Shown here one piece after another: positions 2,924 to 42,000 of a stretch of DNA of 42,000 nt. A program made the translations under genes and the position numbers. The notes beneath the pieces were generated by a model. The model searched no databases and was not told the origin of the DNA. It worked only from the letters and a program-made list of their open reading frames with translations. The stretch spans positions 1 through 42,000 of IMG/VR virus record IMGVR_UViG_3300031606_000394. One strand, given 5' to 3'. Position 1 is the first letter of the stretch. Each line of letters opens with the position of its first letter. This DNA is from a virus. Its lineage: Duplodnaviria; Caudoviricetes.

Positions 2924-2978
2924 AATTTTATCCTTTTCCCTTATTAGAAGGTACACTATATAACTATCTAAGTGAAGC

Positions 2979-3009: not shown

Positions 3010-3036
3010 GTAATTCTGAACTAGATTAGTTCTATA

Positions 3037-4173: not shown

Positions 4174-4195
4174 AAATTTGTCTCCTTTTTATATA

Positions 4196-4735: not shown

Positions 4736-4758
4736 ATTATAATTTTCTCCTCAGTTAG

Positions 4759-6291: not shown

Positions 6292-6309
6292 AACTATAAA
6301 TTGTTTCTC

Positions 6310-6663: not shown

Positions 6664-6675
6664 ATTTTTCTCCTT

Positions 6676-7179: not shown

Positions 7180-7254
7180 CAACCATACTTTTATACACTG
7201 AATAAATAAGAATATATAGTAAAAAATAAAAATAATGCAGCAAACATTGTTTTC

Positions 7255-8769
7255 TTAAATAAATCTTCTTCTAATACTGTTTAGAAGCTCAAGCTTATTT
7301 TCTACCCCCACGCACCAATTGGCATGATGTATTTTTAAGTTATGCGGAATATAAATGTTCTCTTTTTCTTCTTCAGTCTTGTTTTGCCACCATAATCCAG
7401 ATTGATTTTCCTCAGAAAAGTCCTTGATGCCTTCAATGTAAAGCCCATGCGTATAATATCTTTCAGGCAGGAAGCCACGTTTTATGGAAGACATTTTCTT
7501 GAGCTTAATTACTGAATTTACTGTAGATTGATCAGAGTGGATGAATTCTACTCCACCCGCTGTATCATTTTGTTTGATCTTACGGATAGACTCCTCAAAA
7601 AGACTTTTTATTTTTTCGTTAGCTCTCGCGACGAAGAATCCTGTACAATAAGCCGCAACTTCAAAATCATTTTCATCTATAACGTTATGGTCTTTCTGAA
7701 ACAATATGTCGTAACCGCTAATCAATTTTTCTAAATCTGATTTTACACCCCCGTAAAAGCTTACGTCTGCATCAGCATAAATAAATAGATCATTATCTCC
7801 GCACCTCTCTAGAGAGTCCAGTATCGACTCCAACTTCCTAGTCGTGGTCTTAACCCAGCCCTCGCTAAACAGGCGGGCAGATTTACATTCTTGGGGTAGC
7901 CTCTCGATTTCAAGGTCGATACCTTCGTCTAGAAAATACTTTCTGAAGTGACTGTCAAACAGCTTCTCGTGCGATTCTGAAAACGCTGTTTTCATTTTTA
8001 CTCCTTCGAAAGATTCTCGCAAGGGAACCCTGACTACCCTTCCTGCGTTTCCTATCTTTTTCCCCGCGTTTGCAACGAGCAATTTTTTGCGGATGTTCTC
8101 AAAAGACTTATCGCTATTTTCCTCCATCGCTAATTCGAACTCCTTCCCAGACAAGCAAGTCGTTGAGTCTTTAGAGTTTTCTATAGCGTGAAAATATCTT
8201 TTGTCAGTTATCTGAACTTTTTTCAATCCGAAAACTTCTGCCCTGTCCAAAAAATCGATATCTTCCCAAGTACCGCTTGAGGGCAGGTGCTCATCATACC
8301 CGCCGAGCTTCAAAAAGTTAACCTTGCTGATTCCTATTCTGCCACAAGTGCCAGACCCGACCTCAAAGTCGTGGGTGTTAAGTACGATGTCGGGGTCCTT
8401 CGTAAACTCTTCGTAAATAACTTCGTGAGAATTAGAAATAAAATTATCTATGTCCAAGTTAAATAATATGTCTCCTGAAGCTAATTTATGCGATTGATTT
8501 TTAGCAATACTGTTGTGGTAATCTTTTACGGTCAGATTGTGGTGGTATTTAAGCAGTCCGCTGTTTATATGTTCTTGGAGGTTATTCAGTATCCACTCGT
8601 CTAATATGGTAGATGAATTATAGTTTAATAAACTAATTTCAAATCTGTCGGAATCGTGCTCTATTTCTTTTAGGTTCTTCGGGAGGGTTCGTCTAAGCGA
8701 GTCAAAATAGTGTCTGGATAGCCTGACTTCTTTGTAGAACATTACTTGTTGGCAAAAAGAGACTTTCAA
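7255..8769 (-). CDS. Two-domain glycosyltransferase (GT2/GT7-like fused to a nucleotide-diphospho-sugar transferase)
   Basis: FNLDID and GGYDE...WEDIDF in the N half; IYADADV, DQ and HHANWCVGVENK in the C half; TTG start. Confidence 0.75.
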   Translation of the reverse strand: MKVSFCQQVMFYKEVRLSRHYFDSLRRTLPKNLKEIEHDSDRFEISLLNYNSSTILDEWILNNLQEHINSGLLKYHHNLTVKDYHNSIAKNQSHKLASGDILFNLDIDNFISNSHEVIYEEFTKDPDIVLNTHDFEVGSGTCGRIGISKVNFLKLGGYDEHLPSSGTWEDIDFLDRAEVFGLKKVQITDKRYFHAIENSKDSTTCLSGKEFELAMEENSDKSFENIRKKLLVANAGKKIGNAGRVVRVPLRESFEGVKMKTAFSESHEKLFDSHFRKYFLDEGIDLEIERLPQECKSARLFSEGWVKTTTRKLESILDSLERCGDNDLFIYADADVSFYGGVKSDLEKLISGYDILFQKDHNVIDENDFEVAAYCTGFFVARANEKIKSLFEESIRKIKQNDTAGGVEFIHSDQSTVNSVIKLKKMSSIKRGFLPERYYTHGLYIEGIKDFSEENQSGLWWQNKTEEEKENIYIPHNLKIHHANWCVGVENKLELLNSIRRRFI

Positions 8770-8784
8770 TGTAAATTAATATAA

Positions 8785-9603
8785 GTGAAAATCCTTTTCG
8801 TTACAAACTCTATTTTTTCTAAATCATTGAGATATTGCCGAGCTTGTATACAAAAATTTTTTCCAGATCACCCTCATTTAATATTTGAAGTAAACACCTT
8901 TCTACCCTCTGGTAGCGGGAAGGAGCATTTTTGGTATTACAATCTGCATTATCTATACAACATAGACCTGTATAAAAAATACGACTTTGTCATTCAAATA
9001 GACGAGGACGCCTTTGTCTTAGACAGAGATTCAATTATTAAAATCCTAAATAAGCTTCAGAACGATGATAAGGCAGTTCTAGCTGCCCCTTCTAATGGTT
9101 TAATTTCGGCTTATCCATTCGCGGCAAACTCCTATTTCTTTGCGATAGACGTTAATAAATTTTTAAGCATGTATGACGACTTCAAAGACTGGCCACGCCA
9201 TGACTCCTACGACGACAAAAAAGCCCGAGAGATATACGGTCGCTGGAATAATAAAACTCTACAAAAAAATCTGCTGAACGCTAAGGGGGGAGGATGTGAA
9301 CCTTATCACGACTTTTGCTGGAAAATCTTTGAATCAGGGTATGAGATAATATATCTAGACCAAGTAACGCTTTCTCCTCTGCCCATAGACAAAAACACAA
9401 TTACGGGAGACGGAAGCACTTATCTATACTCAAGAGAAACTAAAAAAAGATACCTTCAACACATGTGGTTTAACATGACTTATGGCGGGATGAAAATGCA
9501 AGCTATACACGGCGCAGTCGCGCGATCTGGTCGTCTTGACGATCAAGATAAACACGTACTAAGGTATGAAAAAGTATTTAAAAAATTAGATAAGCTATTA
9601 TGA
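8785..9603 (+). CDS. Putative GT-A fold glycosyltransferase
   Basis: YDFVIQIDEDAF DxD motif; glycosylation island context. Confidence 0.6.
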   Translation: MKILFVTNSIFSKSLRYCRACIQKFFPDHPHLIFEVNTFLPSGSGKEHFWYYNLHYLYNIDLYKKYDFVIQIDEDAFVLDRDSIIKILNKLQNDDKAVLAAPSNGLISAYPFAANSYFFAIDVNKFLSMYDDFKDWPRHDSYDDKKAREIYGRWNNKTLQKNLLNAKGGGCEPYHDFCWKIFESGYEIIYLDQVTLSPLPIDKNTITGDGSTYLYSRETKKRYLQHMWFNMTYGGMKMQAIHGAVARSGRLDDQDKHVLRYEKVFKKLDKLL

Positions 9604-10331
9604 AAGAGGGGTATTTATATTTTGTATCTAACGACGGATACTATGAAGAGGCGTTAACTTCCGCCAAGAGCCTTAAAAGACATGACTCGCAAGCGAACAT
9701 CACAATAGCCATAACATATGACAGAGAAATTGACTCAAAAGTTTTTGATATAGTGTCTCATGTTAAGCCCATAAATTCAGAAGACTATGACCATAATTGT
9801 CTCTTAAGGTTAAAGACTCTTACAGACACGCCTTACGATAAAACATTTTACGTAGATACAGACACGTACTTCTGCGGCAACTGCAGAGAGGTTTTCGATA
9901 TGTTAGATTACTATGATCTTTGTATGGCCGACGCCCCCAACGACATGAGCGAGCCGATTATAAACGGCAAAATTGCAAGAGGGATGCATCCATATAACAA
10001 CGGGGTAATTGCCTATAAATCAAACTGGTCTAATTTTCAACTTTTTAGTCAGACTTCTGAAAATGAAAAGTACCTTAATACTCCGACCATATGCCAAACC
10101 CCTTTCTGCGAGGCGCTAGCTCAGTCTAAATCACGAGTCTTTTTTTTAAAAAGCATATATAACTTAAGGACTATTTTTCCCGCGATAATTAAAGAAAAAG
10201 TCAAAATAATTCACGGCAGACACAAAGACTTGCGAAAAATAGAGAAAGAATTAAATTCTTTATGTGGCCAGTTTAGAGTTTGGCTGCCGAAGGAGGAAAA
10301 ATGCGAAACGATAAAAAGCATATTTCAGTAA
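9600..10331 (+). CDS. GT8-like glycosyltransferase
   Basis: TPYDKTFYVDTDT, YNNGVI and IIHG. Confidence 0.7.
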   Translation: MKEGYLYFVSNDGYYEEALTSAKSLKRHDSQANITIAITYDREIDSKVFDIVSHVKPINSEDYDHNCLLRLKTLTDTPYDKTFYVDTDTYFCGNCREVFDMLDYYDLCMADAPNDMSEPIINGKIARGMHPYNNGVIAYKSNWSNFQLFSQTSENEKYLNTPTICQTPFCEALAQSKSRVFFLKSIYNLRTIFPAIIKEKVKIIHGRHKDLRKIEKELNSLCGQFRVWLPKEEKCETIKSIFQ

Positions 10332-11440
10332 TAGGAATAGGTAAGTTAGGATTGTGTTTTGCCCTATGTCTAGAAAGAGCGGGGCATCATGTCCTTGGGT
10401 ACGATATAAATAGAGAGTTAGTTGACGGAATCAACAACAAAAAAGTAAACTCTTTAGAGCCTCAAGTAAACGAGCTCTTGGCATCGTCGAAAAATTTTAA
10501 AGCAACAACGTCTCTCGCGGACGCAATCCGTGATACCGACATAAACTATGTATTTGTTAATACCCCATCTGATGAAAACGGTAAATTTGAACATTCTAAT
10601 ATTGATTCAATAATAGACGAATTAAAAGTCTATGGAGAAAACTCAAACTTATTCGTGATAGCTTCTACCGTTATGCCCGGTTACTGCGAAGACGCGCGGG
10701 AGACCTTACAAAACCTAGGATATAACGTAGCTTATAATCCGCTATTCATTGTCCAAGGAGCGATAGTTGAAGGTATAACAAATTCAAGCATAGTCTTAAT
10801 TGGCGGGGATGAAAAAGCGAAGTCTCAGATAATTGACCTCCACTCTTCGTTTCTAGAAAGCAATCCTCGATTTTTAAAAACCTCGCTCATTGAGTCAGAA
10901 ATAATTAAGATAGGCGTTAATTGCTATATCACTATGAAAATCTCCTTCGCTAATATGATAGGAGCTTTTTGCAAAAATGCTTCTGAGGACATAGACGTGA
11001 ACACGGTACTCAAAAGTATAGGCAGCGACGAAAGAATCGGAGAAAAGGCTTTTGGATATGGTTATGGATTTGGGGGTCCATGCTTTCCTAGAGACAATAG
11101 AGCGTTGGAGTATGCATCTCGCGTCGTTGGCGTTGACCCCAAGATATGCAAAGCTGTTAACGAACAAAATGACGAACATCTAAAAAACCAATTAGACCTT
11201 ATAGGGCGCGGCGACTTGCCAGATAATATTAGCCCCGACCGGGAGACAGGCGGGTATAAAATAGATGGAGTGACATACAAGAAAGGGACAAATATTCTAG
11301 AAGAATCTCAGCCATTAAAACTTGCGCTTATGCTTGCAGAAAAAGGTAAGCCTATAACGATTATCGAAGAAGCAGGCGTGGTCGAAGAACTAAAAAAACT
11401 ATATCCCCATAAATTTAATTACGATGTACATAAAGTGTAA
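10301..11440 (+). CDS. ugd: UDP-glucose/GDP-mannose 6-dehydrogenase family
   Basis: IGIGKLG Rossmann motif, VNTP, YNP and catalytic GFGGPCFPRD; start placed at MRNDKK after AGGAGG. Confidence 0.9.
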   Translation: MRNDKKHISVIGIGKLGLCFALCLERAGHHVLGYDINRELVDGINNKKVNSLEPQVNELLASSKNFKATTSLADAIRDTDINYVFVNTPSDENGKFEHSNIDSIIDELKVYGENSNLFVIASTVMPGYCEDARETLQNLGYNVAYNPLFIVQGAIVEGITNSSIVLIGGDEKAKSQIIDLHSSFLESNPRFLKTSLIESEIIKIGVNCYITMKISFANMIGAFCKNASEDIDVNTVLKSIGSDERIGEKAFGYGYGFGGPCFPRDNRALEYASRVVGVDPKICKAVNEQNDEHLKNQLDLIGRGDLPDNISPDRETGGYKIDGVTYKKGTNILEESQPLKLALMLAEKGKPITIIEEAGVVEELKKLYPHKFNYDVHKV

Positions 11441-11816
11441 AATTTCAATAGGAGAATACTTGGACAAACTTTCTATTCTTTACATAAAAAGAATAAAGAT
11501 CACCGATCCCTCCAAGCTCATAAATGTAAATAGAGAGATCAGAGAACTAGAAAAAACTCTCAAATTAATCCCCGAAGAACCACGAGAGCTAATGATGAGC
11601 GATCTTATGAAAATCAATGAAAAAATGTGGAACTGTAACGAGAAAAGAAAGTTGAAAATTGAAGAGTGCGAATTTGATCAGGAGTATCTTAAACTTTCGA
11701 TAGAAGAAAGCGCAGAAAACGATAGGAGATTTCATATAAAGCAGAAAATAAATCAATTCTTTGACTCAGAAATTAAAGAAGAAAAAAGCTATGGTCGGAT
11801 CAAATCTTTAGATTAG
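11424..11816 (+). CDS. DUF6165-like protein
   Basis: ISIGEYLDKLSILYIK...NDRRFHIKQKIN...EEKSY pattern. Confidence 0.7.
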   Translation: MYIKCKISIGEYLDKLSILYIKRIKITDPSKLINVNREIRELEKTLKLIPEEPRELMMSDLMKINEKMWNCNEKRKLKIEECEFDQEYLKLSIEESAENDRRFHIKQKINQFFDSEIKEEKSYGRIKSLD

Positions 11817-12585
11817 CTTCTAAAATCACATCTATGTATTTTATGTTGCCCTTTTCTACTTGAATATTTTTTTTGCCAAACGGATTGAAGGGAATCATTT
11901 GGTACTCTGGACCTATACACATCACATTTGAACCGCAGTTTGAGGCTAGCTGAGTAAACCCAGAATAGCTTGTAACAAATAGATCTGAATGATTAAGGTA
12001 AAAAATAGATTTAATTATGTCAGTACAAAATTCAGAATTTTTGACATTCATCTCTAAGACCTCGCTCTTGAGTCCGTGAAAAATAATTCTTTTGTTCTCA
12101 AAGTCCTTTACGCTTTTTATCTTATCTATAACTTTTAGCCAGCTTAGCTTATCCAAGTTTCTTTCTGAATCTAGCTTCCTATTTCTACATAACATGTTTA
12201 TAAATTTTTTTTCACTTCTCTCTCCTGTCGAAAGAGGCTCGCTCATGTTTGTTATTAGCTGCCTACCCTCTCTCCAGTCTGTTGTGTAGCAACCCAGTTC
12301 TTTGGATAAGCATGAGTATTCTTTTTCTCTTAAATCTCTTTGGAACCCCGCGTGTTCTAAATCGTGATATTTTCTAGACTCTTCAGGGATTTCTCTTGGG
12401 TTAATTTTTAATACACAAAGGCTTTTGGTGAATCTATTAGGGAATGCTAGGTCTAGTATTTTAAAGTAGTCCTCGTAAGTGAGAATATTAAATTTCGTAC
12501 GCGGGTTTTTTATAAAGTATTTTTCTAGACTGCCTAGGACATTGAAGTTCAAATATCCTAATTCGCCATAGTAAAAGACATCCAT
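11800..12585 (-). CDS. Putative GT-B (GT9-like) glycosyltransferase
   Basis: YGELG at the N-terminus and SDLFVTSYSGFTQLASNCG near the C-terminus (GT9-like xxFxxxDSGxxHLA pattern); start uncertain. Confidence 0.55.
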   Translation of the reverse strand: MDVFYYGELGYLNFNVLGSLEKYFIKNPRTKFNILTYEDYFKILDLAFPNRFTKSLCVLKINPREIPEESRKYHDLEHAGFQRDLREKEYSCLSKELGCYTTDWREGRQLITNMSEPLSTGERSEKKFINMLCRNRKLDSERNLDKLSWLKVIDKIKSVKDFENKRIIFHGLKSEVLEMNVKNSEFCTDIIKSIFYLNHSDLFVTSYSGFTQLASNCGSNVMCIGPEYQMIPFNPFGKKNIQVEKGNIKYIDVILEANLKI

Positions 12586-12609
12586 ATATGATATGATAAG
12601 ATAAGACAA

Positions 12610-14187
12610 ATGAATATACTAGGAATTTCTCATCTGCTTTCTTATAATCCGGCAGCCTGTTTAATACAAGACGGAAAGCTTATCGCATTCGCCGAAGAAG
12701 AGAGGTTCATCAGGCAGAAACAAGCACCAAGAGCCTTTGTCAGAGAAAGCATAAAGTTCTGCTTGAAAGCGGGAAATATTTCTTTGGAAGACGTGGACGT
12801 TGTCGCTGTCGGGTTTTATAACCCTGATGATCCATGGACTAAGGGAAAAGACGAGCTTCTAGAGGCGGAGCTTAAAAATTTAGGGCTCAAGAATATACGG
12901 TACTACGATCATCACTTGTCTCACGCGGCTAGTACAGCTATACCTTCTGGGTTTGAGGAAAGTAATGTAATAAGCATTGATGGATGGGGAGGTCCAAGCT
13001 CAGGCTTACTTGGGTACAAAACAGGAAACGATATAAAAGTCTTAAAGTCGATTCCCCCTACGCACACATGGGGAGGTATATGGAATAGAGTTACGAAACA
13101 TATTGGGTTTATGGGTCACGGAGAAGAAGGGAAAACGATGGGGCTAGCAAGCTATGGAGCTCCAGATCAATTTCTATTGCCTGATTTTACAGAAGATAAT
13201 TTGCCTAACAAAGAAAAATATTTAGATTTTTTTAGTTCGCCAAAATATAAAGCTGGCAAAATTGCTTTCGGAACATTTGAAGGCAGCGCTCTGTTAGAGT
13301 CAATAATAAAAATAAATACAGCTGCGACCTTACAAGATTTATATCAACGCTCTTTAGTTGAAATAGGAAAAAAATTATACGAAGAAACAAAATGTAAAAA
13401 TTTTACCCTAGCAGGAGGCGTTGCGCTTAATTGTACCGGAAATGGATATTTAAGTAATCAAAGCTTCGTAGAGAAAATTTTTATTCAACCCGCTAGTCAC
13501 GATGGAGGAACCGCCTTAGGATCTGCCATACTCGCCTATAGGGATTTTGAGGGCTCATGGCCGACAATAAAATTTGACAACGCTTATTGGGGGAGAGAGT
13601 TTTCAGACGGTCAAATTAGAAAATGTCTAGTAAGACACAATGCCAAATTTGAAGAAGTCGACCCTGTTGAAGCAGCAATCAAAAACATATCTCAAAACAA
13701 TGTTATTGGCTTTTTTCAGGGGCGAAGTGAAGTTGGACCTCGCGCGCTAGGTAATAGAAGTATATTAGCAGACCCAACTAAATACGAAAATTTAAACAAA
13801 GTTAACGCAATAAAAAGAAGAGAAAAATGGAGACCCTTAGCTCCCAGTATTTTAGAAGAAGAATATTTTAATATAGTAGAATGTAAAACCTTATCCCCGT
13901 TTATGCTTATGGCTACGCAAGTAAAAGAAAAATTTAAAATTAAAATTCCAGCAGTTACTCATATAGATGGTTCCTGTCGACCCCAATCAGTATCAAAGAA
14001 AGCCAATAAAAAATATCATCAAATTCTATCGGGTCTAGAAAAAGCCATTGGCGTACCCGTTGTGTTAAACACGAGCTTTAATAATAAAGGAGAGCCAATT
14101 GTGGATTCTCCCGAAGACGCTCTAAATTCTTTTTTAAATTGTGATTTAGATAAATTAATTATAGGTTCTTTTGAAGTAAGCAAATGA
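12610..14187 (+). CDS. O-carbamoyltransferase (NodU/CmcH family)
   Basis: EEERF, HHLSHA, IDGWG, EGKTMGLASYG, LAGGVALNC, GPRALGNRSIL and LNTSFN. Confidence 0.95.
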   Translation: MNILGISHLLSYNPAACLIQDGKLIAFAEEERFIRQKQAPRAFVRESIKFCLKAGNISLEDVDVVAVGFYNPDDPWTKGKDELLEAELKNLGLKNIRYYDHHLSHAASTAIPSGFEESNVISIDGWGGPSSGLLGYKTGNDIKVLKSIPPTHTWGGIWNRVTKHIGFMGHGEEGKTMGLASYGAPDQFLLPDFTEDNLPNKEKYLDFFSSPKYKAGKIAFGTFEGSALLESIIKINTAATLQDLYQRSLVEIGKKLYEETKCKNFTLAGGVALNCTGNGYLSNQSFVEKIFIQPASHDGGTALGSAILAYRDFEGSWPTIKFDNAYWGREFSDGQIRKCLVRHNAKFEEVDPVEAAIKNISQNNVIGFFQGRSEVGPRALGNRSILADPTKYENLNKVNAIKRREKWRPLAPSILEEEYFNIVECKTLSPFMLMATQVKEKFKIKIPAVTHIDGSCRPQSVSKKANKKYHQILSGLEKAIGVPVVLNTSFNNKGEPIVDSPEDALNSFLNCDLDKLIIGSFEVSK

Positions 14188-20852: not shown

Positions 20853-22007
20853 TTAAGCTATGTCTCCGAGCCTACTTAATTCCTGAAGCTTTTCGATGGG
20901 TCTACCCAATCCGCCCACAGCAGTAAAGACCGTGAGACCCGGTTTATCTCCGCTATAAATGCCCCTATGAACTGTATTGCCTTTTTTAAGCATTCTTGAG
21001 ACTTGGTCAAATGCCTGATCCAAGGAGCTTTGGGGAATTGTATTTAGTTGCTCTGTTCCGCCAATTACTACAACCGCCGCCACATGCCCAGAACGCAAAT
21101 CTACCCCGCCAGACAAAAGGTTATTAGACAGATTATCCCTAACAGCCCTAGCAACCGCTATGTTATCCTTCCAGTCAGGAACAGGAGAAGCGCCAAAGAC
21201 TATTAATCCCGAATCTAAAACTCCCCTATAGTCATTAGCGTCAAATGCCGAGTAAGTGCTATCTTTTGTAGCCGTATGATTAAACAGGTGGAATAACCCC
21301 GCGACGCTATGGTTGGCTGTCTGCCAGAACTTAGATACAGGCAGGTCTGGATAAAGCTTCGCAATTTTTTCGTTATCAATAATGATTAGCGGTCCAACAA
21401 TTTGCTTTTCTACTAATCCGTAAACTGAATTCAATATGTTAAACGCGTTTGCGTTTACTTTTTTACCCTCGGAAGCTTTAGGCAGAGCCAAGATTACTCC
21501 GACCTTTTTGTGTCCAGAGTTCAAAGCGGCTTGTATCTCGTGCGCTAATATCGTCATTGGGCAAACCGAGCCAGCCCCAGTTCCCCCTCCTGCGCCAGCA
21601 CAAACAAAAATCCTATCATACCCATCTCCCAAGGATCTCCTAAGAAAATCAGTAATGTCTTCTCGGTTATCCTTAAATAGGTTTGCGGCTTTTTCTGGGT
21701 TCTTACCTGCCCCGCCTTCTCCAAAGCATAATTTATTTTCTAGATTAATTGTGTTTAAGTCTTGTTGGGCGGTATTTAAAACAGCGATTCTTCTATACCC
21801 AATCTTGTGGAAGGTTTCCGCGATTCTTGACCCCCCTTGCCCAACGCCTATGAAAGCGTACTTGAATGCTGCGTCTACTTCGTCTTCAATAAAATCAGTG
21901 TTAACGCTTGATGCCGGCGGGGGGACTATGAGATCAGGCATTTCAATGTCAGGAGTCTCGCCGTACATGCTCTGAATTATGTTATCGTCTTTCTCTTCCT
22001 CGTTCAT
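20853..22007 (-). CDS. Tubulin/FtsZ-superfamily GTPase (PhuZ/TubZ/CetZ-like)
   Basis: FIGVGQGGSRIA (T1), LNTAQQD, GGAGKNP (T3), GAGGGTGAG (T4 signature), LPKASEG, IIDNEK and FDANDY (T7-like). Confidence 0.93.
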   Translation of the reverse strand: MNEEEKDDNIIQSMYGETPDIEMPDLIVPPPASSVNTDFIEDEVDAAFKYAFIGVGQGGSRIAETFHKIGYRRIAVLNTAQQDLNTINLENKLCFGEGGAGKNPEKAANLFKDNREDITDFLRRSLGDGYDRIFVCAGAGGGTGAGSVCPMTILAHEIQAALNSGHKKVGVILALPKASEGKKVNANAFNILNSVYGLVEKQIVGPLIIIDNEKIAKLYPDLPVSKFWQTANHSVAGLFHLFNHTATKDSTYSAFDANDYRGVLDSGLIVFGASPVPDWKDNIAVARAVRDNLSNNLLSGGVDLRSGHVAAVVVIGGTEQLNTIPQSSLDQAFDQVSRMLKKGNTVHRGIYSGDKPGLTVFTAVGGLGRPIEKLQELSRLGDIA

Positions 22008-36077: not shown

Positions 36078-36542
36078 TTATAAGTCTTCTTTGCTCAAAT
36101 GCGGGCGTTCTGCCCAGTAGGGAGCACCATAGCTAATTGTCAGTTCGTCGTTAGGCATTATGTGTCTCTGTGCGCGAAATATTATGTATTGTTCTTTTAC
36201 ATTATCAGTTAGCTGATTTTTACAAAAAAACTCCCAAGATAGGTTTGGGCGATCTGAGTGATTGTACATTGCTCCGAATCCCAACATGAGCATCACTGGC
36301 TTCACTCTTTCTTTGTACTCCTCTGAGTCATCGACTGAGCGCTTAAACATGTCTGGGTCAGTTAAAGCGAAAATATAATCATTTAATGGCGAGGGTATCT
36401 TTTCATGAGTAGTCTTTACGTACGGGCAAAACTCCACTAGCTCTTCAGGAGCTATTGGCTTCGTGCAGAATACCCCTCTGCCGAGATCGCAATTTCTAAC
36501 TTCTACTTTCACTTTTGTAGGTCTGTAGCTCCATTTTCCCAT
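36078..36542 (-). CDS. SET-domain methyltransferase
   Basis: GRGVF, YNHSDRPN and ELTISYG; start placed at MGKWSY, downstream of the predicted promoter. Confidence 0.85.
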   Translation of the reverse strand: MGKWSYRPTKVKVEVRNCDLGRGVFCTKPIAPEELVEFCPYVKTTHEKIPSPLNDYIFALTDPDMFKRSVDDSEEYKERVKPVMLMLGFGAMYNHSDRPNLSWEFFCKNQLTDNVKEQYIIFRAQRHIMPNDELTISYGAPYWAERPHLSKEDL

Positions 36543-36561
36543 TCTCACATAGCTCCCAGCT

Positions 36562-36590
36562 ATATTAGTAAGGGTATATGCAAAAAGCAA
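36562..36590 (-). promoter_or_regulatory. sigma70-type promoter for the SET-rml operon
   Basis: TTGCTT-N17-TAATAT on the minus strand. Confidence 0.55.
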
Positions 36591-36733: not shown

Positions 36734-36985
36734 TTACTTAATGGCCGACATAAAATAACCAAGGACAAAGAGAAAGACCGCGCTCGCGACCAACCCCGCG
36801 AGCAAAATAGAGAAAATAGCCTTGATGGAATCCCAAACCTTCGCCAACTTGCTTGGCTCCTTTGCAAAATACTTTTCTCTCATCAGTTTAACCCTACCGT
36901 CAGCCTTGGCTTGTTGGTAGTCAAGAATCTCGCGCATTTTCCTTATGTCCCGCGCTCTGTTGTTCCCTCTGTAAGTGGTTCGCAT
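36734..36985 (-). CDS. Small protein with C-terminal TM helix
   Basis: 83 aa; AIFSILLAGLVASAVFLFVLGYF. Confidence 0.7.
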   Translation of the reverse strand: MRTTYRGNNRARDIRKMREILDYQQAKADGRVKLMREKYFAKEPSKLAKVWDSIKAIFSILLAGLVASAVFLFVLGYFMSAIK

Positions 36986-36989
36986 AAAA

Positions 36990-37244
36990 TTAGCCTTTCA
37001 CTAAAGTGTTGTCGTCGTGGACTTCCAAATCCTGCAGGAAATCCGTAACCTCATCGAGGGATGCGTAAAACACATCCTCGAATGCTACTGACTCACCATA
37101 ACCATCTCCAAATGCGTTTTCTAACCAAGCACCTTCGCAAGGTACGATGTTGACAAGGCGGCAAGGCTCGCCCGTGTTTGCATTGATGTAAATCCTCCCG
37201 CATTGGAGGTTGTTTGCTTTTTGGTTTAATCTCATTTCTTTCAT
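36990..37244 (-). CDS. Small early protein, paralog family X (copy 1)
   Basis: QKANNLQCGRIY...RLVNIVPCEGAWLENAFGDGYGESVAFEDVFYA matches 37963 and 39219; leaderless after its promoter. Confidence 0.8.
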   Translation of the reverse strand: MKEMRLNQKANNLQCGRIYINANTGEPCRLVNIVPCEGAWLENAFGDGYGESVAFEDVFYASLDEVTDFLQDLEVHDDNTLVKG

Positions 37245-37279
37245 TGCTATAATATAACCCCATTTCTTAAAAAAGTCAA
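37245..37279 (-). promoter_or_regulatory. Class A sigma70 promoter, leaderless
   Basis: TTGACT-N17-TATATT-N6-ATG. Confidence 0.85.
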
Positions 37280-37306
37280 GGGCTGGAGGGCATTTTTCTT
37301 AAAAAG

Positions 37307-37327
37307 ATATTCACAGGGTGTTAATAA
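37307..37327. promoter_or_regulatory. Inverted pair of DnaA-box-like 9-mers
   Basis: ATATTCACA (37307-37315) and TGTTAATAA (37319-37327), each one mismatch from TTATNCACA. Confidence 0.5.
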
Positions 37328-37339
37328 CTTTTCCATAGG

Positions 37340-37372
37340 TTGGCACGGCGGGCGCTGCACGTCCCGTGCCAA
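37340..37372. repeat. 33-bp dual sigma54-like palindrome, copy 1
   Basis: TTGGCACG-gcgggc-GCTGCAC-gtcc-CGTGCCAA. Confidence 0.85.
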
Positions 37373-37379
37373 CCTTTAG

Positions 37380-37400
37380 GTGGGACATTGGCTGTCCACC
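37380..37400 (-). promoter_or_regulatory. Class B operator-like inverted repeat without a -10
   Basis: Minus strand GGTGGAC-N7-GTCCCAC, 7 bp from palindrome copy 1. Confidence 0.6.
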
Positions 37401-37478
37401 CTCTGAAAGTTTTTTCCCGACCCTCGTTTGAGTACTGTTTTCGTGGGGTATTCTGCACCAACTTTCTGCTCTGTGGAT

Positions 37479-37512
37479 TTGCTTTTCTTTAAAAAGTGGG
37501 GTATGTTATGGT
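37479..37512 (+). promoter_or_regulatory. sigma70-like promoter, leaderless
   Basis: TTGCTT-N17-TATGTT-N5-ATG (37513). Confidence 0.6.
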
Positions 37513-37734
37513 ATGAAAGAGAATATGAAAGACACAAAAGAAACAACCGACTTTATCGTAACCACCACCAGCGGCACACGCTGGAGTGCAACTGGTACAT
37601 CACCCGCCAACGTGCGAGAGAACTTTTGGATGCGTTCCCCCTCCATCATCGCCAAGGTAGAAGCGGGTAGACTTTTCACCCACGAAGAAGATGCGGAATT
37701 GAAAAGAGAAAAACTTGAAGAAATGTGCAGGTAG
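37513..37734 (+). CDS. Small early protein
   Basis: 73 aa; its TAG stop lies inside the next class B repeat. Confidence 0.7.
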   Translation: MKENMKDTKETTDFIVTTTSGTRWSATGTSPANVRENFWMRSPSIIAKVEAGRLFTHEEDAELKREKLEEMCR

Positions 37735-37766
37735 GACGGCAGATGTCCCACCTCCCGTGGTATACT
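37731..37766 (+). promoter_or_regulatory. Class B promoter repeat, copy 1
   Basis: GTAGGAC-N7-GTCCCAC-N9(TGG)-TATACT. Confidence 0.85.
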
Positions 37767-37788
37767 AAACGCATAACAAATTAAGAAT

Positions 37789-37956
37789 ATGAAAAACAAA
37801 AACGAAAACACGAACGAGCTAACCGTTAAGGGCTTGACCAGTAACGAAGACGAAACCTTTACCGGCGTTCGAAATGACAGCTTCGGCCACGATTACCGTG
37901 ACCACGACCAAGATGCTTGGAATTTTGAAATTGACGAAACCGATTGCTGGAAGTAA
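37789..37956 (+). CDS. Small acidic protein, paralog family Y (copy 1), not in ORF track
   Basis: 55 aa MKNKNENTNELTVKGLTSNEDETFTGVRNDSFGHDYRDHDQDAWNFEIDETDCWK; near-identical to 38842..39024. Confidence 0.8.
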   Translation: MKNKNENTNELTVKGLTSNEDETFTGVRNDSFGHDYRDHDQDAWNFEIDETDCWK

Positions 37957-37962
37957 AAAATT

Positions 37963-38181
37963 ATGGGAATGATAACAATGCCACAAATGAAACAAGCGCG
38001 TAACCTAAAGCTGGGCGCGATTTACGTACTCAAGGGTACTTACGAAAAAGTTCGACTGGTAAGCATCGGATGCAGCGCCAGCGTAGAAAACGCACGGGGC
38101 GAAGGCTACGGCGAAACCATACCGTTTAAGCATTTGCTTTACGCCAACGCCGTGGAGGTGAAAAACTTTTTGGAAGGGTAG
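37963..38181 (+). CDS. Small early protein, paralog family X (copy 2)
   Basis: QARNLKLGAIYVLKGTYEKVRL...VENARGEGYGETIPFKHLLYA. Confidence 0.8.
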   Translation: MGMITMPQMKQARNLKLGAIYVLKGTYEKVRLVSIGCSASVENARGEGYGETIPFKHLLYANAVEVKNFLEG

Positions 38182-38213
38182 CACCACAAATGTCCCACCT
38201 CGTGTGCTATACT
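38178..38213 (+). promoter_or_regulatory. Class B promoter repeat, copy 2
   Basis: GTAGCAC-N7-GTCCCAC-N9(TGC)-TATACT-N6-ATG (38220). Confidence 0.85.
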
Positions 38214-38219
38214 AGACGT

Positions 38220-38375
38220 ATGAAAATGATTATGAAAGACGAACTTTTTGAAGTAAGAATCGCAACGTGGAGCAATGGCACCACCACCACCACCCACATC
38301 AAAGCATTTGACTTGGCTCACGCCAAGCGGATTGCTAAACGCAAATGGGGAACCACAAGGGTTCTGCCAGTATAA
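38220..38375 (+). CDS. Small basic early protein (51 aa)
   Basis: MKMIMKDELFEVRIATWSNG...HAKRIAKRKWG; leaderless start. Confidence 0.7.
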   Translation: MKMIMKDELFEVRIATWSNGTTTTTHIKAFDLAHAKRIAKRKWGTTRVLPV

Positions 38376-38433
38376 CAGCCCACCGTGCCGCCTTGTTGAA
38401 ACTACGCTTGAGACACAGCGTGATGGATGAGGG

Positions 38434-38466
38434 TTGGCACGGTGCGTGCAGCCCGCCGCGTGCCAA
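38434..38466. repeat. 33-bp dual sigma54-like palindrome, copy 2 (inverted relative to the others)
   Basis: TTGGCACG-gtgc-GTGCAGC-ccgccg-CGTGCCAA. Confidence 0.85.
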
Positions 38467-38500
38467 CAATCCAGAGAAAAAGTTTTTTAGTTTTCTCAAG

Positions 38501-38536
38501 GTAGGACTGCAGATGTCTCACCCCGTGTGGTATACT
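38501..38536 (+). promoter_or_regulatory. Class B promoter repeat, copy 3
   Basis: GTAGGAC-N7-GTCTCAC-N9(TGG)-TATACT-N6-ATG (38543). Confidence 0.85.
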
Positions 38537-38542
38537 TACAGC

Positions 38543-38803
38543 ATGATGATTGAAACAGATATGAAAGAAAAACCAACCTACGAACTCTGGTTCTTAGGTG
38601 ACCGCTGCAACTCCCTTGTGAAGTGTCGCGAGTCATTCAACAAACTGCTGATTGATGCGGGCGAGCTAATGCGCTGCGGGCGCGAAGCAGGGTTAAGCGT
38701 TGGAGGCATAGAAATCTGCTGTGTGAGTGCTGATGGCAATGACGTCGAAACAGTGTGGCATCACAACCTCGCAGACGACAAGAAAAAGAAAGTCACAAGG
38801 TAG
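38543..38803 (+). CDS. Small early protein (86 aa)
   Basis: MMIETDMKEKPTYELWFLG...; TAG stop inside the next class B repeat. Confidence 0.75.
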   Translation: MMIETDMKEKPTYELWFLGDRCNSLVKCRESFNKLLIDAGELMRCGREAGLSVGGIEICCVSADGNDVETVWHHNLADDKKKKVTR

Positions 38804-38835
38804 GACTGCAAATGTCCCACCCTCTATGCTATAAT
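38800..38835 (+). promoter_or_regulatory. Class B promoter repeat, copy 4
   Basis: GTAGGAC-N7-GTCCCAC-N9(TGC)-TATAAT-N6-ATG (38842). Confidence 0.85.
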
Positions 38836-38841
38836 AGACTT

Positions 38842-39024
38842 ATGATAATTGAAACAGATATGAAAGAAAAAGAAAACACAAACGAGCTAACCGTTAAGGG
38901 CTTACTCAGTAACGAAGATGAAACCTTTACCGGTGTCCGTAATGATAGCTTCGGCCACGATTACCGCGACCACGACCAAGACACTTGGAACTACGAAATT
39001 GACGAAACCGATTGCTGGAAGTAA
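38842..39024 (+). CDS. Small acidic protein, paralog family Y (copy 2)
   Basis: MIIETDMKEKENTNELTVKGLLSNEDETFTGVRNDSFGHDY... Confidence 0.8.
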   Translation: MIIETDMKEKENTNELTVKGLLSNEDETFTGVRNDSFGHDYRDHDQDTWNYEIDETDCWK

Positions 39025-39029
39025 AGATT

Positions 39030-39215
39030 ATGAAAATAGAAAACATAGAAGTAAAAGTGGGCGATGAAATTCGCGTTGGGATGCAACTGATGATAGTTGA
39101 TGAAATCACAGAATTTGACACCATCATTGCAATTGATGAAGATGGTGCAGAGTTAGAGTTAACCGAAAATGAATTTGACGTTTACGTCGACCGTTCAAAA
39201 GTGAAGGGAAATTAA
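39030..39215 (+). CDS. Small very acidic beta-rich protein (61 aa)
   Basis: MKIENIEVKVGDEIRVG...DEDGAELELTENEFD. Confidence 0.75.
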   Translation: MKIENIEVKVGDEIRVGMQLMIVDEITEFDTIIAIDEDGAELELTENEFDVYVDRSKVKGN

Positions 39216-39218
39216 ATT

Positions 39219-39440
39219 ATGGGAATGATAGTAATGATGAACAAACAAGCGCACAACTTAAAGTTGGGAGCGATTTATGTACTTAAAGGTACTTACGAAA
39301 AAGTGCGGTTGCTGACCGTTTTACCCTGCGAAGGCGTTTGGGTAGAAAACGCACAAGGCGAAGGCTACGGCAAAACCGTTCCATTTGAACATTTGCTTTA
39401 CGCTAACGACGAAGAAGTAAAAAACTTTTTGGAGAATTAA
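39219..39440 (+). CDS. Small early protein, paralog family X (copy 3)
   Basis: QAHNLKLGAIYVLKGTYEKVRLLTVLPCEGVWVENAQGEGYG. Confidence 0.8.
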   Translation: MGMIVMMNKQAHNLKLGAIYVLKGTYEKVRLLTVLPCEGVWVENAQGEGYGKTVPFEHLLYANDEEVKNFLEN

Positions 39441-39444
39441 AATT

Positions 39445-39648
39445 ATGGAAACAAGAACAATAGTAAATGCGGCGTTGGAAACCAACGAGAATTTTATGAC
39501 TATTGACGGGGTACTTTTCTCCGTGGTAGAGCATAGAACATTTGATGATTTTGGAGTGAGCACGGAAAGCTTCAAGGTCGTGAACTTTAGCAGTGAAACT
39601 CGCGTGCTTCACAGTGATGATGATGCGCTAACCTTCTGGGAGAATTAA
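39445..39648 (+). CDS. Small acidic hypothetical protein
   Basis: 67 aa; TAAAATTATG junction like its neighbours. Confidence 0.7.
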   Translation: METRTIVNAALETNENFMTIDGVLFSVVEHRTFDDFGVSTESFKVVNFSSETRVLHSDDDALTFWEN

Positions 39649-39652
39649 GATT

Positions 39653-39808
39653 ATGAAAAAAACAAAAAAACAACTGATTGAGGAATTGCCATCTTCAGAC
39701 CTACGCAAAGAACACGAAAAAGATATATTGATTCACGGGATTTTTATAGGCGTTTTAATTGGCAGCCTATTAACTGGGATAATGATTGAAGTTTTTCCAA
39801 GGATATAA
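39653..39808 (+). CDS. Small membrane protein (51 aa), not in ORF track
   Basis: MKKTKKQLIEELPSSDLRKEHEKDILIHGIFIGVLIGSLLTGIMIEVFPRI. Confidence 0.65.
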   Translation: MKKTKKQLIEELPSSDLRKEHEKDILIHGIFIGVLIGSLLTGIMIEVFPRI

Positions 39809-39847
39809 TTATGACGGCGCGCGCTGTCAAGCGGTTTTCCCAAAAAG

Positions 39848-39856
39848 TTATTCACA
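39848..39856 (+). promoter_or_regulatory. DnaA-box consensus match
   Basis: TTATTCACA matches TTATNCACA exactly, 6 bp from palindrome copy 3. Confidence 0.55.
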
Positions 39857-39862
39857 AAAAAG

Positions 39863-39895
39863 TTGGCACGGCGGCGGCTGCACCTCGCGTGCCAA
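39863..39895. repeat. 33-bp dual sigma54-like palindrome, copy 3
   Basis: TTGGCACG-gcggcg-GCTGCAC-ctcg-CGTGCCAA. Confidence 0.85.
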
Positions 39896-39898
39896 CCT

Positions 39899-39985
39899 TT
39901 ACCAGACACGCAAGCGGTCTAAGTACTGCAGCAAGATCCACGCGACGGCGACGCCTGTAACGATATGGTAATGGTATGTTCTCAT
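39899..39985 (-). CDS. 28-aa hydrophobic peptide, not in ORF track
   Basis: MRTYHYHIVTGVAVAWILLQYLDRLRVW; TAATTATG junction; stop 3 bp from palindrome copy 3. Confidence 0.5.
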   Translation of the reverse strand: MRTYHYHIVTGVAVAWILLQYLDRLRVW

Positions 39986-39987
39986 AA

Positions 39988-40113
39988 TTAAATACTTGTA
40001 AAGTTTTCTTCTTGAAGCTCAAGTGCTTCATACTCCTCTTGGTCGGTCGGTGCGTTGATTCCCTCGCAGATCAAATCCAAGAGCTTCGCTGTTTGTATGT
40101 CGTTGTCTTCCAT
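39988..40113 (-). CDS. 41-aa acidic peptide, not in ORF track
   Basis: MEDNDIQTAKLLDLICEGINAPTDQEEYEALELQEENFTSI; leaderless after a class A promoter. Confidence 0.7.
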   Translation of the reverse strand: MEDNDIQTAKLLDLICEGINAPTDQEEYEALELQEENFTSI

Positions 40114-40148
40114 TGCTATAATGTAACACTTAAACTTAAAAAAGTCAA
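40114..40148 (-). promoter_or_regulatory. Class A sigma70 promoter repeat
   Basis: TTGACT-tttttaagtttaagtgt-TACATT-N6-ATG. Confidence 0.85.
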
Positions 40149-40156
40149 GCGGTTTT

Positions 40157-40351
40157 TTACCACGTCCACGCTTCTCCCGCTATCATCATATGGGCGATGA
40201 CGCCAACGAGGACAAGGGATGCACCAGCACACGCAGCGATAACTAGCTCGCAATGCCAAATGTGCTTTTGTTCGCGGAGGATGCTCGCTTTAAGGTCGAG
40301 GATCTTAAGGGCTTTGCTGGGGTTTGGGTAGGCTTTCTTTGTTGCTTTCAT
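40157..40351 (-). CDS. Small membrane protein (MKATKK...)
   Basis: 64 aa with a C-terminal hydrophobic helix; leaderless. Confidence 0.75.
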   Translation of the reverse strand: MKATKKAYPNPSKALKILDLKASILREQKHIWHCELVIAACAGASLVLVGVIAHMMIAGEAWTW

Positions 40352-40386
40352 TGTTATAATATAACACTTAAACTTAAAAAAGTCAA
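40352..40386 (-). promoter_or_regulatory. Class A sigma70 promoter repeat
   Basis: TTGACT-tttttaagtttaagtgt-TATATT-N6-ATG. Confidence 0.85.
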
Positions 40387-40395
40387 GCGGTTTTT

Positions 40396-40644
40396 TCAGT
40401 TTCTTTCAAGGACTGACGCGGGTTGACCGTCAACGAGCCACGACGCTGTGCCTGTGTCCGACAAGCAAGCCACCGCGTCAGTATCCACCCCACAAGCAGC
40501 CTTGAAGCGGTCAGCGTCAAAACGCGGGTTGTCCTTGGCGAAATGGGTTGCGGCTAGGGTAGCCAGCACAGGGGCGGGCGTGCCGTTGTTGGCGGCGTTG
40601 ATAAGGGCTGCGGTGAATTCGAAGTCTTTCTTTGTTGCTTTCAT
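40396..40644 (-). CDS. Small early protein (MKATKKDFEFTA...DNPRFDADRFKAACG)
   Basis: 82 aa from ATG 40644; TKKDF...DNPRFDxxRFxxAC is a pattern I associate with small phage early proteins. Confidence 0.75.
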   Translation of the reverse strand: MKATKKDFEFTAALINAANNGTPAPVLATLAATHFAKDNPRFDADRFKAACGVDTDAVACLSDTGTASWLVDGQPASVLERN

Positions 40645-40679
40645 TAGTATAATGTAACACTTAAACTTAAAAAAGTCAA
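40645..40679 (-). promoter_or_regulatory. Class A sigma70 promoter repeat
   Basis: TTGACT-tttttaagtttaagtgt-TACATT-N6-ATG. Confidence 0.85.
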
Positions 40680-40696
40680 GGGCTTTTCTGAGAAAG

Positions 40697-40720
40697 TTAT
40701 TCGCAGGGAATTGTGAACAA
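40697..40720. promoter_or_regulatory. Inverted pair of DnaA-box-like 9-mers
   Basis: TTATTCGCA (40697-40705) and TGTGAACAA (40712-40720), each one mismatch from TTATNCACA. Confidence 0.5.
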
Positions 40721-40727
40721 CTCAAGG

Positions 40728-40760
40728 TTGGCACGGCGGCGGCTGCACTTTTCGTGCCAA
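40728..40760. repeat. 33-bp dual sigma54-like palindrome, copy 4
   Basis: TTGGCACG-gcggcg-GCTGCAC-tttt-CGTGCCAA; minus strand reads TTGGCACGAAAAGTGCA. Confidence 0.85.
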
Positions 40761-40761
40761 C

Positions 40762-41229
40762 TTATTGAAAGCCTGTCGGAGCTTTCCTCAAGCGATAAAA
40801 CAGATGTTTGCCAACCGAGCGCACCGCCTTCTTACCCTTCAAGTGGTCTGGTGTCCGGATGCCTGTCGGGTTTATGTAGTGGTCGGCATAGTTAACATAA
40901 CGGCGGTCAACCGTGTTGAGGCTCTGCGCTAATGCTATGGCATAGTGCCGCATGCTGTGCGTCTGCAATAGTCTTGGAAGTTTTGCCCTGTTGGGGTCGT
41001 TCTTATTCCAGCAAGAGAATTGCCAATCCTGCTTGCATACCTGTGCGGGTGTCAGGTGTCGATTGATGGAGCGTTGAGCTATAACGCAAGCCACCGCATA
41101 CATACCCGCCTTGCCCTCCCCACGAGCTTCGCCAAGTATAGTCATGGCAACGGTCTTTTGCTCTTGTGTGAGTTGCGCCTGTGCTGCCAGCGCAAGCATG
41201 AACGTGAGAGTTATACCCCAGAACCACAT
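40762..41229 (-). CDS. Cell wall hydrolase (SleB/Hydrolase_2 family) with signal peptide
   Basis: TILGEARGEGKAGMYAVACVIAQR, QFSCWN, ADHY and GKHLFY; start MWFWGITLTFMLALAAQA with TGATG overlap. Confidence 0.88.
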   Translation of the reverse strand: MWFWGITLTFMLALAAQAQLTQEQKTVAMTILGEARGEGKAGMYAVACVIAQRSINRHLTPAQVCKQDWQFSCWNKNDPNRAKLPRLLQTHSMRHYAIALAQSLNTVDRRYVNYADHYINPTGIRTPDHLKGKKAVRSVGKHLFYRLRKAPTGFQ

Positions 41230-41558
41230 CACAGCACCTCCTTCCATACTGCGTGCGACATAGTGGTCGGTGTGCGATACTCCCACGCTGGAGACATCGG
41301 GCTAACCTTCTCCCATCCGTCTTGCACGAATAGCTTGCCAATGGTGTAGTCTAGCCAATAGCGAGACTGTTGCTCAAAAGTCTTATCCATAGCTGCCTCT
41401 ATCACCTTGATAAACTCTGCTGTTGCTGGCTTGGCATCGGTGGAGAAAAAGGCATTCGCCTCATCAAATCCGCCCCAGCGTCCGGTAGCTTCTTTCTTTC
41501 CAAGTGCGGCGAGTTCTATTCTATAATACTTTTCTTCTGTTTTTGTTTCTGTTTTCAT
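41229..41558 (-). CDS. Hypothetical early protein
   Basis: 109 aa; TAAATTATG junction. Confidence 0.7.
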   Translation of the reverse strand: MKTETKTEEKYYRIELAALGKKEATGRWGGFDEANAFFSTDAKPATAEFIKVIEAAMDKTFEQQSRYWLDYTIGKLFVQDGWEKVSPMSPAWEYRTPTTMSHAVWKEVL

Positions 41559-41561
41559 AAT

Positions 41562-41792
41562 TTAATTCTCCAAGTTCAGCGGGTCGATGACCCGCCCGTC
41601 ATCATCGAGGGCTTCTGCAAATTCTTCCTCATCAAATAACATTTCGTTGCAATGCATCATATCCTGCACAGCTTCCTCGCTCATGTGCTTAACGCAAGCC
41701 ATAATGACTTGGTCTTTATCATACAAGCCCTCTTCAATGCGCTCCAGTAGTAGGTTCGTGTATTCTCTTGCTTTCATATCTGTTTTAATCAT
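41562..41792 (-). CDS. Small acidic early protein (76 aa)
   Basis: MIKTDMKAREYTNLLLERIEEGLYDKDQVIMACVKHMSE...; leaderless after a class B repeat. Confidence 0.75.
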   Translation of the reverse strand: MIKTDMKAREYTNLLLERIEEGLYDKDQVIMACVKHMSEEAVQDMMHCNEMLFDEEEFAEALDDDGRVIDPLNLEN

Positions 41793-41798
41793 GCGTCT

Positions 41799-41834
41799 AG
41801 TATAGCACAGGGGGTGGGACAATTGCCGTCCTAC
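41799..41834 (-). promoter_or_regulatory. Class B promoter repeat, copy 5
   Basis: Minus strand GTAGGAC-N7-GTCCCAC-N9(TGC)-TATACT-N6-ATG (41792). Confidence 0.85.
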
Positions 41835-42000
41835 CCTAAAACTTCCTCAATAAACTTTTCACCCACGCATTCGACGTGGAACTCGTCACGAGGTAGCCAG
41901 CCCATCCAAATCTCCGCGCCGAATTTGTGCGGGGGTGCGGCTCTCAAGAGCCACTTGCTGCCAATTATGTTGTCCCCCTCGAAATTGAACACAGACCCAT
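41831..42000 (-). CDS. 3' end of a hypothetical gene, partial
   Basis: Open frame ...GSVFNFEGDNIIGSKWLLRAAPPHKFGAEIWMGWLPRDEFHVECVGEKFIEEVLG ending at a TAG inside the class B repeat. Confidence 0.6.
   Translation of the reverse strand, partial: GSVFNFEGDNIIGSKWLLRAAPPHKFGAEIWMGWLPRDEFHVECVGEKFIEEVLG

Follow-up and report, generated by a model that had tools for sequence, protein, structure and literature searches.

Sigma-54 (RpoN) is an enhancer-dependent promoter factor. The sites of class I upstream activators, such as those of CRP, have an effect that is tied to whole helical turns upstream of the -35 box. Here we describe a 33-bp dyad that is present in four copies in a 42,000-nucleotide stretch of viral DNA (positions 1 to 42,000 of the IMG/VR record IMGVR_UViG_3300031606_000394, Caudoviricetes; hereafter called the window). 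The dyad is a real element and, judged by its sequence, a variant of the sigma-54 site. It would differ from a class I site in what is predicted to occupy it: not a transcription-factor dimer but a second holoenzyme of RNA polymerase, or a sigma factor.

The closest described systems are the bacterial -24/-12 sites of sigma-54, including the silent sites detected by chromatin immunoprecipitation (ChIP; PMC4591121) and the 'repressive promoters' (PMC8743547), which, as outlined there, have the TGGCACG box, the GG-N10-GC spacing and the A/T at -11 that are also present in the dyad. According to the same accounts, the holoenzyme can sit at such sites without firing and affect another promoter, as we propose for the dyad, and what many of the silent sites are for has yet to be settled (PMC4591121). 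The dyad differs from them in that it is a facing pair sharing the -11 position, has mostly lost the T or TT that precedes the GC, has G+C-rich spacers, occurs in phage and lies 11-90 bp upstream of the -35 box in helical phase instead of overlapping it. A host sigma-54-type sequence in a phage is known from promoter P015 of phage YuA (bioRxiv 10.1101/2023.10.13.562163), which is described as a single promoter with a mapped start, whereas the dyad is a palindrome repeated in front of sigma-70 promoters. The PeSL cassettes of T4-type phages (PMC2839356, PMC4122927) likewise combine a repeated palindrome, an A/T tract and a strong sigma-70-like promoter between small variable genes; their stem-loops are reported as tested terminators, whereas the dyad has a fixed sequence and length without compensation and sometimes adjoins a separate terminator. 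Symmetric bidirectional promoters of E. coli (PMC12825309) are pseudo-symmetric too, accept polymerase either way and allow one binding event to exclude the other, but they fire, which is not part of the reading favored here for the dyad, and sigma-54 does not figure in the available account of them. The open-licence PMC and bioRxiv literature, searched at the level of abstracts, a scope that leaves out the original YuA genome paper, yielded no account of phages with facing sigma-54 pairs. The original prediction had known of no such phage system, which agrees with this result for facing pairs but has to be qualified by the single sigma-54-like promoter of YuA. New here are the symmetric consensus, the measured loss of the T, a held-out phasing test, a test system in Pseudomonas phages and a counterpart in Acidobacteria.

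A pattern scan recovered all four copies that had been predicted, at the expected coordinates and with 0 mismatches, and 100 dinucleotide shuffles gave 0 matches even with three mismatches tolerated. The copies are as follows, where a T-keeping half is one that retains the T before the GC:

37340..37372, plus strand: dyad copy 1, situated at a divergent junction, with its T-keeping half reading leftward, to the promoter at 37279
38434..38466, minus strand: dyad copy 2, in inverted orientation, with its T-keeping half reading rightward, to a promoter of a second type at 38500-38536
39863..39895, plus strand: dyad copy 3, at the convergence of plus-strand and minus-strand blocks of small genes
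40728..40760, plus strand: dyad copy 4, 1 base past the stop of a cell-wall-hydrolase gene

Beyond these copies the window contained no TGGCAC...GTGCCA pair. The symmetric consensus of the 33-mer, obtained from 93 viral and 111 metagenome copies, is TTGGCACG-N6-GCWGC-N6-CGTGCCAA; the near-invariance of its arms applies to copies that had been found with that motif. The 33-mer consists of two facing GG-N10-GC sites with the central base pair (W) common to both strands, and this shared W is the -11 position, the site of the fork in the stable closed complex of sigma-54, which is placed at -12/-11 (PMC5505868, as outlined there). Across the 93 viral copies, positions 16-19 were invariant (93/93) and position 15 was G in 88, while position 20 was A in 45 and C in 43 and position 21 varied too. 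The central GCTGCAC, previously taken as invariant, is so within the window, but the core shared with relatives is GCWGC. The arms of the window copies are longer by one extra G/C pair (4/4).

Searches for relatives of the dyad gave 43 loci on 11 viral contigs for the exact pattern (one contig is nearly the window's own DNA), 109 loci on 21 viral contigs for a relaxed pattern (one, L169, is probably a chance match at a gene end) and 196 loci in the 23 of 64 metagenome parts that were scanned. Most loci behind the half-site counts were retrieved with the GCWGC core, and an arms-only scan independent of the core was made on four long stretches, namely relative G001 (7 pairs), G002 at 1-20 kb (5), G003 at 8-28 kb (15) and the window (4). 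All 31 pairs had identical spacing and GCWGC. G001 is syntenic with the window, with core proteins that are mostly 50-75% identical, and is 96% complete; all seven of its pairs lie at 6.3-15.1 kb amid small genes, and its seven lone halves elsewhere are without the GC. Overall, lone TTGGCACG halves kept the GC in 1 of 28 cases. Each examined stretch held 4 to 15 copies, and the dyad appears to mark the early region of a phage clade represented by the 21 viral contigs. Arm-only dyads with 5-7 bp spacers were also seen in relatives (e.g. L003:2974), beside the full element and a tRNA-like end. An arms-only spacing test over viral contigs (2 of 64 parts) gave a flat distribution of gaps from 5 to 35, mostly chance, and was uninformative beyond other gap classes. 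The window's own dyad had no meaningful match in cultured phages.

The half-sites resemble sigma-54 sites in the -24 box TGGCACG, present in 8/8 window halves, and in the spacing, since in the clade 327 of 332 halves have GC ten bases after GG, followed by A or T in 324; the earlier statement that the opposite strand keeps the sigma-54 spacing is upheld by these counts. Within the window the T before the GC is kept in one half of each copy (4/8 halves) and TT in none; the better half has one mismatch to the sigma-54 consensus and the other half two. The T-keeping half is directed at the next promoter in 4/4 window copies and, clade-wide, in 55 cases against 14 discordant ones, which are not independent of each other. 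The most telling evidence for sigma-54 is from unrelated phages. A scan for facing GG-N10-GC sites with a free gap (37 of 64 parts) revealed, apart from the gap of 1 in the window's clade, 80 pairs with gaps of 3-8; gap 2 did not occur, gap 0 occurred once, and gaps of 9-14 were seen in 13 pairs. In 79 of the gap 3-8 pairs the T before the GC was present in 155 of 158 halves and TT in 119, though the pattern demanded neither. Because the gap varies from 3 to 8 while the T is retained, the unit would be the half-site and not a fixed dimer, and the window's clade is apparently a degenerate case of such facing sigma-54-type pairs. The spacers have 78% G+C in the clade versus 36% in the gap 3-8 pairs of unrelated phages, and the stretch to be melted has 74% versus 48% in the other phage pairs. 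The sigma-54 domain PF04552 was not found in three relatives (G001-G003), one of them 96% complete. PF00158 matches in relatives, considered as a phage enhancer protein, turned out to be a RuvB-like AAA protein without GAFTGA, and no phage enhancer protein was found in the relatives. Given the missing sigma-54 domain and the RuvB-like nature of the AAA protein, any sigma-54 acting here would be that of the host, and we consider sigma-54 the probable binder of the dyad.

A palindrome beside a promoter may also form a hairpin, here possibly the terminator part of a promoter-terminator cassette of the PeSL type that would double as a recombination point. Such an RNA or single-strand hairpin is consistent with the place of the dyad, which has a gene end on one side and, on the other, an A/T tract with an early promoter, as outlined for PeSL, and with folding z values of -2.6 to -4.7. 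In the 111 metagenome copies, positions 12:22 paired in 62 cases versus 42.6 ± 4.4 after shuffling and 13:21 in 60 versus 51.5, an excess that is inseparable from kinship; the other four inner pairs were below the shuffle, and in the viral set the inner positions paired about as often as in shuffled copies. The arms were followed in an overlapping set of 360 loci (991,666 bases), in which 158 GCWGC-centred 33-mers had arms pairing at 6 or 7 of 7 positions. Of these, 148 showed no departure from the consensus, 10 showed one and none was compensated. An earlier count of arm departures (5 compensated, 42 broken) was set aside as its search had tolerated only one inner mismatch. The loop has a fixed length of 17 bases, and the 3' flank was T-rich in only 51 of 444 cases and A-rich in 104, so the dyad lacks the short-loop G+C stem followed by a U run of an intrinsic terminator. 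None of the four window copies was called by terminator prediction, and 15 of 124 copies have a separate hairpin-plus-T-run terminator of their own on the far side. Because of the fixed spacing (31/31 pairs) and the absence of compensated arms, the dyad seems to behave as a double-stranded protein site and not as a hairpin, an explanation we regard as very improbable. The original prediction of a protein-binding element in place of a simple terminator is supported by the sigma-54 spacing on both strands, the uncompensated arms and the missing terminator call, and the comparison it had called for, of spacing against stem covariation in relatives, came out as fixed spacing (31/31) and compensated arms in 0/158.

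The dyad is mostly placed at regular distances from the next predicted promoter. Outward-facing TTGAC was found within 130 bases on 78 sides of the 93 viral copies, and the 70 unique spacers formed 48 clusters. The distance from dyad center to TTGAC in these clusters was phased with R 0.63 at a period of 10, reached by 0 of 3000 random sets, and R 0.41 at 10.5 (6/3000). A separate metagenome set of 142 further copies, from which already seen or window-identical copies had been dropped, gave 66 clusters with R 0.43 at the same phase (0/5000 random sets). When both sets were pooled, the distance from the near arm to TTGAC was within 1 bp of a multiple of 10 for 96 of 136 spacers, compared to 30% expected. 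The promoter was on the left of 34, on the right of 21 and on both sides of 7 among 84 copies, and an ATG 33-38 bases past TTGAC marked 61 of 133 downstream promoters as leaderless. Among 55 one-sided copies, 10 had the stop of an incoming gene at 0-7 bases from the far arm, whereas on the promoter side such a stop was seen in 1 of the 55. We take the spacers, which are A/T tracts, to resemble UP elements, and the phase presumably matches that of class I activator sites.

A comparable layout is found in cultured phages. When an array from one viral contig was compared with cultured phages, 352 records matched, and the stretch concerned in the Pakpunaviruses Kat and PAK_P4 was matched by 131 phage records, of which five Pseudomonas phages were read. 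Kat has a full-consensus facing pair with gap 4 (L694:15002-15037), 10 bp before TTGACA. The near-arm distances of the full-consensus pairs, counted by eye, were 10 in PAK_P4, 10 in phiK7A1, 9 in Kassivere and 20 in EM. As the near-arm register is the same as in the window's clade despite the different gap, this small sample suggests that the half kept in fixed phase is the back-to-back one. In PAK_P4 (pair at L697:2523-2558) a promoter is annotated at this place, together with an RNA-seq-based RNA whose coarse 5' end is inside the pair, upstream of the annotated promoter. A non-coding RNA is annotated beside the facing pair in both Kat and PAK_P4, and Kat has further single sigma-54-type sites clustered at L694:2688-3634. 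Vibrio phage D419, which has T5-type DNA-transfer genes, carries a gap-3 pair near a genome end (L695:4525-4557), and at 7600-8500 single sigma-54-type sites and DnaA-box-like 9-mers precede its DNA-binding and DNA-transfer genes; bases 1-14000 of phage T5 contained no facing pair. Other viral contigs (L302, L314, L324, L427, L429 and others) have non-coding stretches with dense arrays of single and paired sigma-54-type sites; no phased promoter accompanies these arrays, several of which are located at contig ends.

We propose that the 33-mer is a two-way site that would bind the host sigma-54 RNA polymerase and hold it as a closed complex, and that this parked polymerase may act in cis on the adjacent sigma-70 early promoter, a model to which we give about an even chance. 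The symmetry would let the polymerase dock in either orientation, so that the cassette could work flipped. Firing would be prevented as each -12 box is inside the G+C-rich stretch that its partner must melt. From one face of the helix the parked polymerase would act on the neighboring sigma-70 promoter and, in view of the phase, either touch the sigma-70 polymerase or share the A/T tracts between them; this non-firing mode of action, by contact or by tract sharing, is what we infer. Stimulation of the sigma-70 promoter is slightly favored over blocking because most copies lie upstream of intact A/T tracts and leave the promoter uncovered. If this holds, a phased two-way sigma-54 site would provide silent binding with a function and point to a host factor in early infection, and the same layout in PAK_P4 and relatives makes the idea testable in laboratory Pseudomonas strains.

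Several observations weigh against this model. Sigma-54 has been described as regulating other promoters without firing (PMC8743547), but the effect of silent sites outlined there is repression, not stimulation. The halves were predicted to be sigma-54 sites, which stands for the -24 box and the GG-N10-GC spacing, but clade-wide they are poorer than had been stated: T precedes the GC in only 130 of 332 halves and TT in 15, whereas in E. coli, by our own count from Table 1 of PMC4591121, T is present at 48 of 50 intergenic ChIP sites and G at none. A T-keeping half is not guaranteed either, with 36 of 111 metagenome copies lacking the T in both halves, and the arm-only dyads with 5-7 bp spacers depart from the form altogether. 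The best period was 10.0 in the viral and 9.5 in the metagenome set, not 10.5, and six control words gave R 0.11-0.39, the highest being TTGAG (n=27) with R 0.39; kinship and 10-bp repeats within the spacers could yield phasing without contact. Only one of the window's own three distances (60, 48 and 32) is within 1 bp of the phase, TTGAC is missing from the 100 bases to either side of 22 of the 84 copies, copy 2 among them, and in other viral groups outward TTGAC was present on only 13 of 158 sides, without a phase (R 0.19). A host could not be named by homologue, Atlas or literature searches, and terminase matches were only 23-26% identical.

Alternatively, a different protein of host or phage, in dimeric or tetrameric form, could bind the dyad as an ordinary upstream regulator, with the sigma-54 likeness in this clade being inherited or incidental. 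Helical phasing is typical of activators, and the loss of T/TT in most clade halves, the single fixed gap inside the clade, the arm-only dyads and the unnamed host all suit such a regulator. Across phages and bacteria, however, gaps of 0, 1 and 3-8 occur while the halves keep GG-N10-GC, arms 25 bp apart would be an unusual span for one dimer, and the 96% complete relative has no RpoN-type DNA-binding domain, which leaves other DNA-binding folds possible; we consider this explanation unlikely. Somewhat more doubtful is that the dyad acts as a tandem or bidirectional sigma-54 promoter and fires once a host enhancer-binding protein activates it, which corresponds to the host-state-gated switch of the original prediction. 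In favor of this, the half closer to the consensus is directed at the next gene, a sigma-54-like promoter is known from YuA, symmetric bidirectional promoters are described in E. coli, in an account without mention of sigma-54, and the coarse RNA end of PAK_P4 is inside the pair. That RNA could start at a promoter-like site further upstream, the melt stretch is richer in G+C than in other phage pairs, a tandem promoter requires no phase, and a longer transcript would likely lose the leaderless start seen in 61 of 133 downstream promoters.

Two of the roles offered by the original prediction, a decoy titrating host sigma-54 or a roadblock insulating early transcription units, agree with the 4 to 15 copies per stretch, with the genes that end 0-7 bases from the far arm, with copy 3, which is at a convergence without a predicted terminator, and with the pair arrays of other phages that have no neighboring promoter. 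Neither role needs the 10-bp phasing, the degenerate -12 boxes would make poor decoys, and silent sigma-54 sites gave no roadblock effect in E. coli as outlined in PMC4591121, and as the main role of the dyad a decoy or roadblock is therefore not borne out and appears highly improbable.

The DNA of the window belongs to a large tailed phage, with genes for a terminase, a Clp-type protease, PhoH, an ERCC4 nuclease and a sigma-70 region-2 protein; a tubulin/FtsZ-like protein is encoded at 20853-22007 and a SET-domain protein at 36078-36590. We infer that the block of small genes with repeated promoters that contains the four dyad copies is the early region. The features around the copies are:

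36734..41835: predicted early region of small, mostly unannotated genes and repeated promoters, with all four copies inside
37251..37279, minus strand: predicted sigma-70 promoter TTGACT-17-TATATT, separated by 60 bp from the copy 1 arm; leaderless, with ATG 6 bases past the -10 box
37479..37507, plus strand: promoter-like TTGCTT-17-TATGTT, right of copy 1, with ATG 5 bases on; read by eye and absent from the promoter prediction
38500..38536, plus strand: promoter of the second type, in which GGTAGGAC-N6-TGTCYCACC replaces the -35 box and an extended -10 box is present; faces copy 2
39802..39830, minus strand: weak promoter-like TTGACA-17-TATATC, separated by 32 bp from the copy 3 arm, without a start codon at the usual place; read from the sequence and absent from the promoter prediction
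39848..39856, plus strand: DnaA-box-like 9-mer between copy 3 and its promoter
40651..40679, minus strand: predicted sigma-70 promoter TTGACT-17-TACATT, separated by 48 bp from the copy 4 arm, with a leaderless ATG
40762..41229, minus strand: cell-wall hydrolase gene (Hydrolase_2), ending at copy 4

The second promoter type is associated with a 23-base palindrome, GGTAGGAC-N6-TGTCCCACC, at window positions 37379, 37730, 38177, 38500, 38799 and 41813. An extended -10 box follows five of the six palindromes, and there were 10 strand matches versus 0 in shuffles. DnaA-box-like 9-mers are near-fixed upstream of the -35 box (37306-37330, 39848-39856 and 40697-40720), and one-mismatch forms adjoin copies 1 and 4; window-wide there were 6 exact matches versus 3.8 expected, which by itself is not above chance. 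Other relatives have a TATGCA-N3-TGCATA palindrome together with 10-bp repeats in the same spacer. Small genes with their promoters are duplicated at 85-90% identity (37789-37956 and 38755-39024; 37963-38181 and 39219-39440), a probable sign of cassette duplication. In one RNA dataset a fraction of 0.11 of the words matched, on short contigs without ends or strand, from which no inference was drawn.

Facing pairs also occur in bacteria. A genome-wide scan, which demanded T in both halves and so is no test of absence for the form of the window's clade, found 55 stretches in 596 billion bases, versus about 6 by uniform chance, and 17 of them were gap-0 dyads of Acidobacteria. Five acidobacterial genomes with gap-0 dyads had 5-20 copies each at one mismatch, and RpoN was present in four of the five. 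For 9 of 22 such dyads a TAYAAT-like box was present 14-26 bases further on, with a leaderless start codon 5-7 bases past the box. Exact copies were rare in the phylum (2 of 201), and the gap-1 form was found neither in five bacterial genomes nor, as an exact match, in the 201 sampled Acidobacteriota. The gap-0 dyads are possibly an undescribed bacterial regulon. A broader and rather tentative idea, which we hold to be improbable on balance, is that face-to-face sigma-54 pairs in phages and some Acidobacteria would keep the host sigma-54 polymerase permanently shut and use it as an upstream activator of a neighboring sigma-70 promoter; one way would be the loan of its alpha C-terminal domains in a back-to-back arrangement. 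If true, one RNA polymerase would be the transcription factor for another, and early phage expression would be tied to the host sigma-54 pool. The acidobacterial dyads, several in bacteria named Vicinamibacterales (L444, L451, L452, L458 and L479 at 401-430; G004-G007 and G147), are clamped by G+C-rich arms. Records labelled Flexilinea (L445, L459, L463 and L478 at 401-440) contain longer perfect palindromes with facing sigma-54-type halves and gaps of 8-10.

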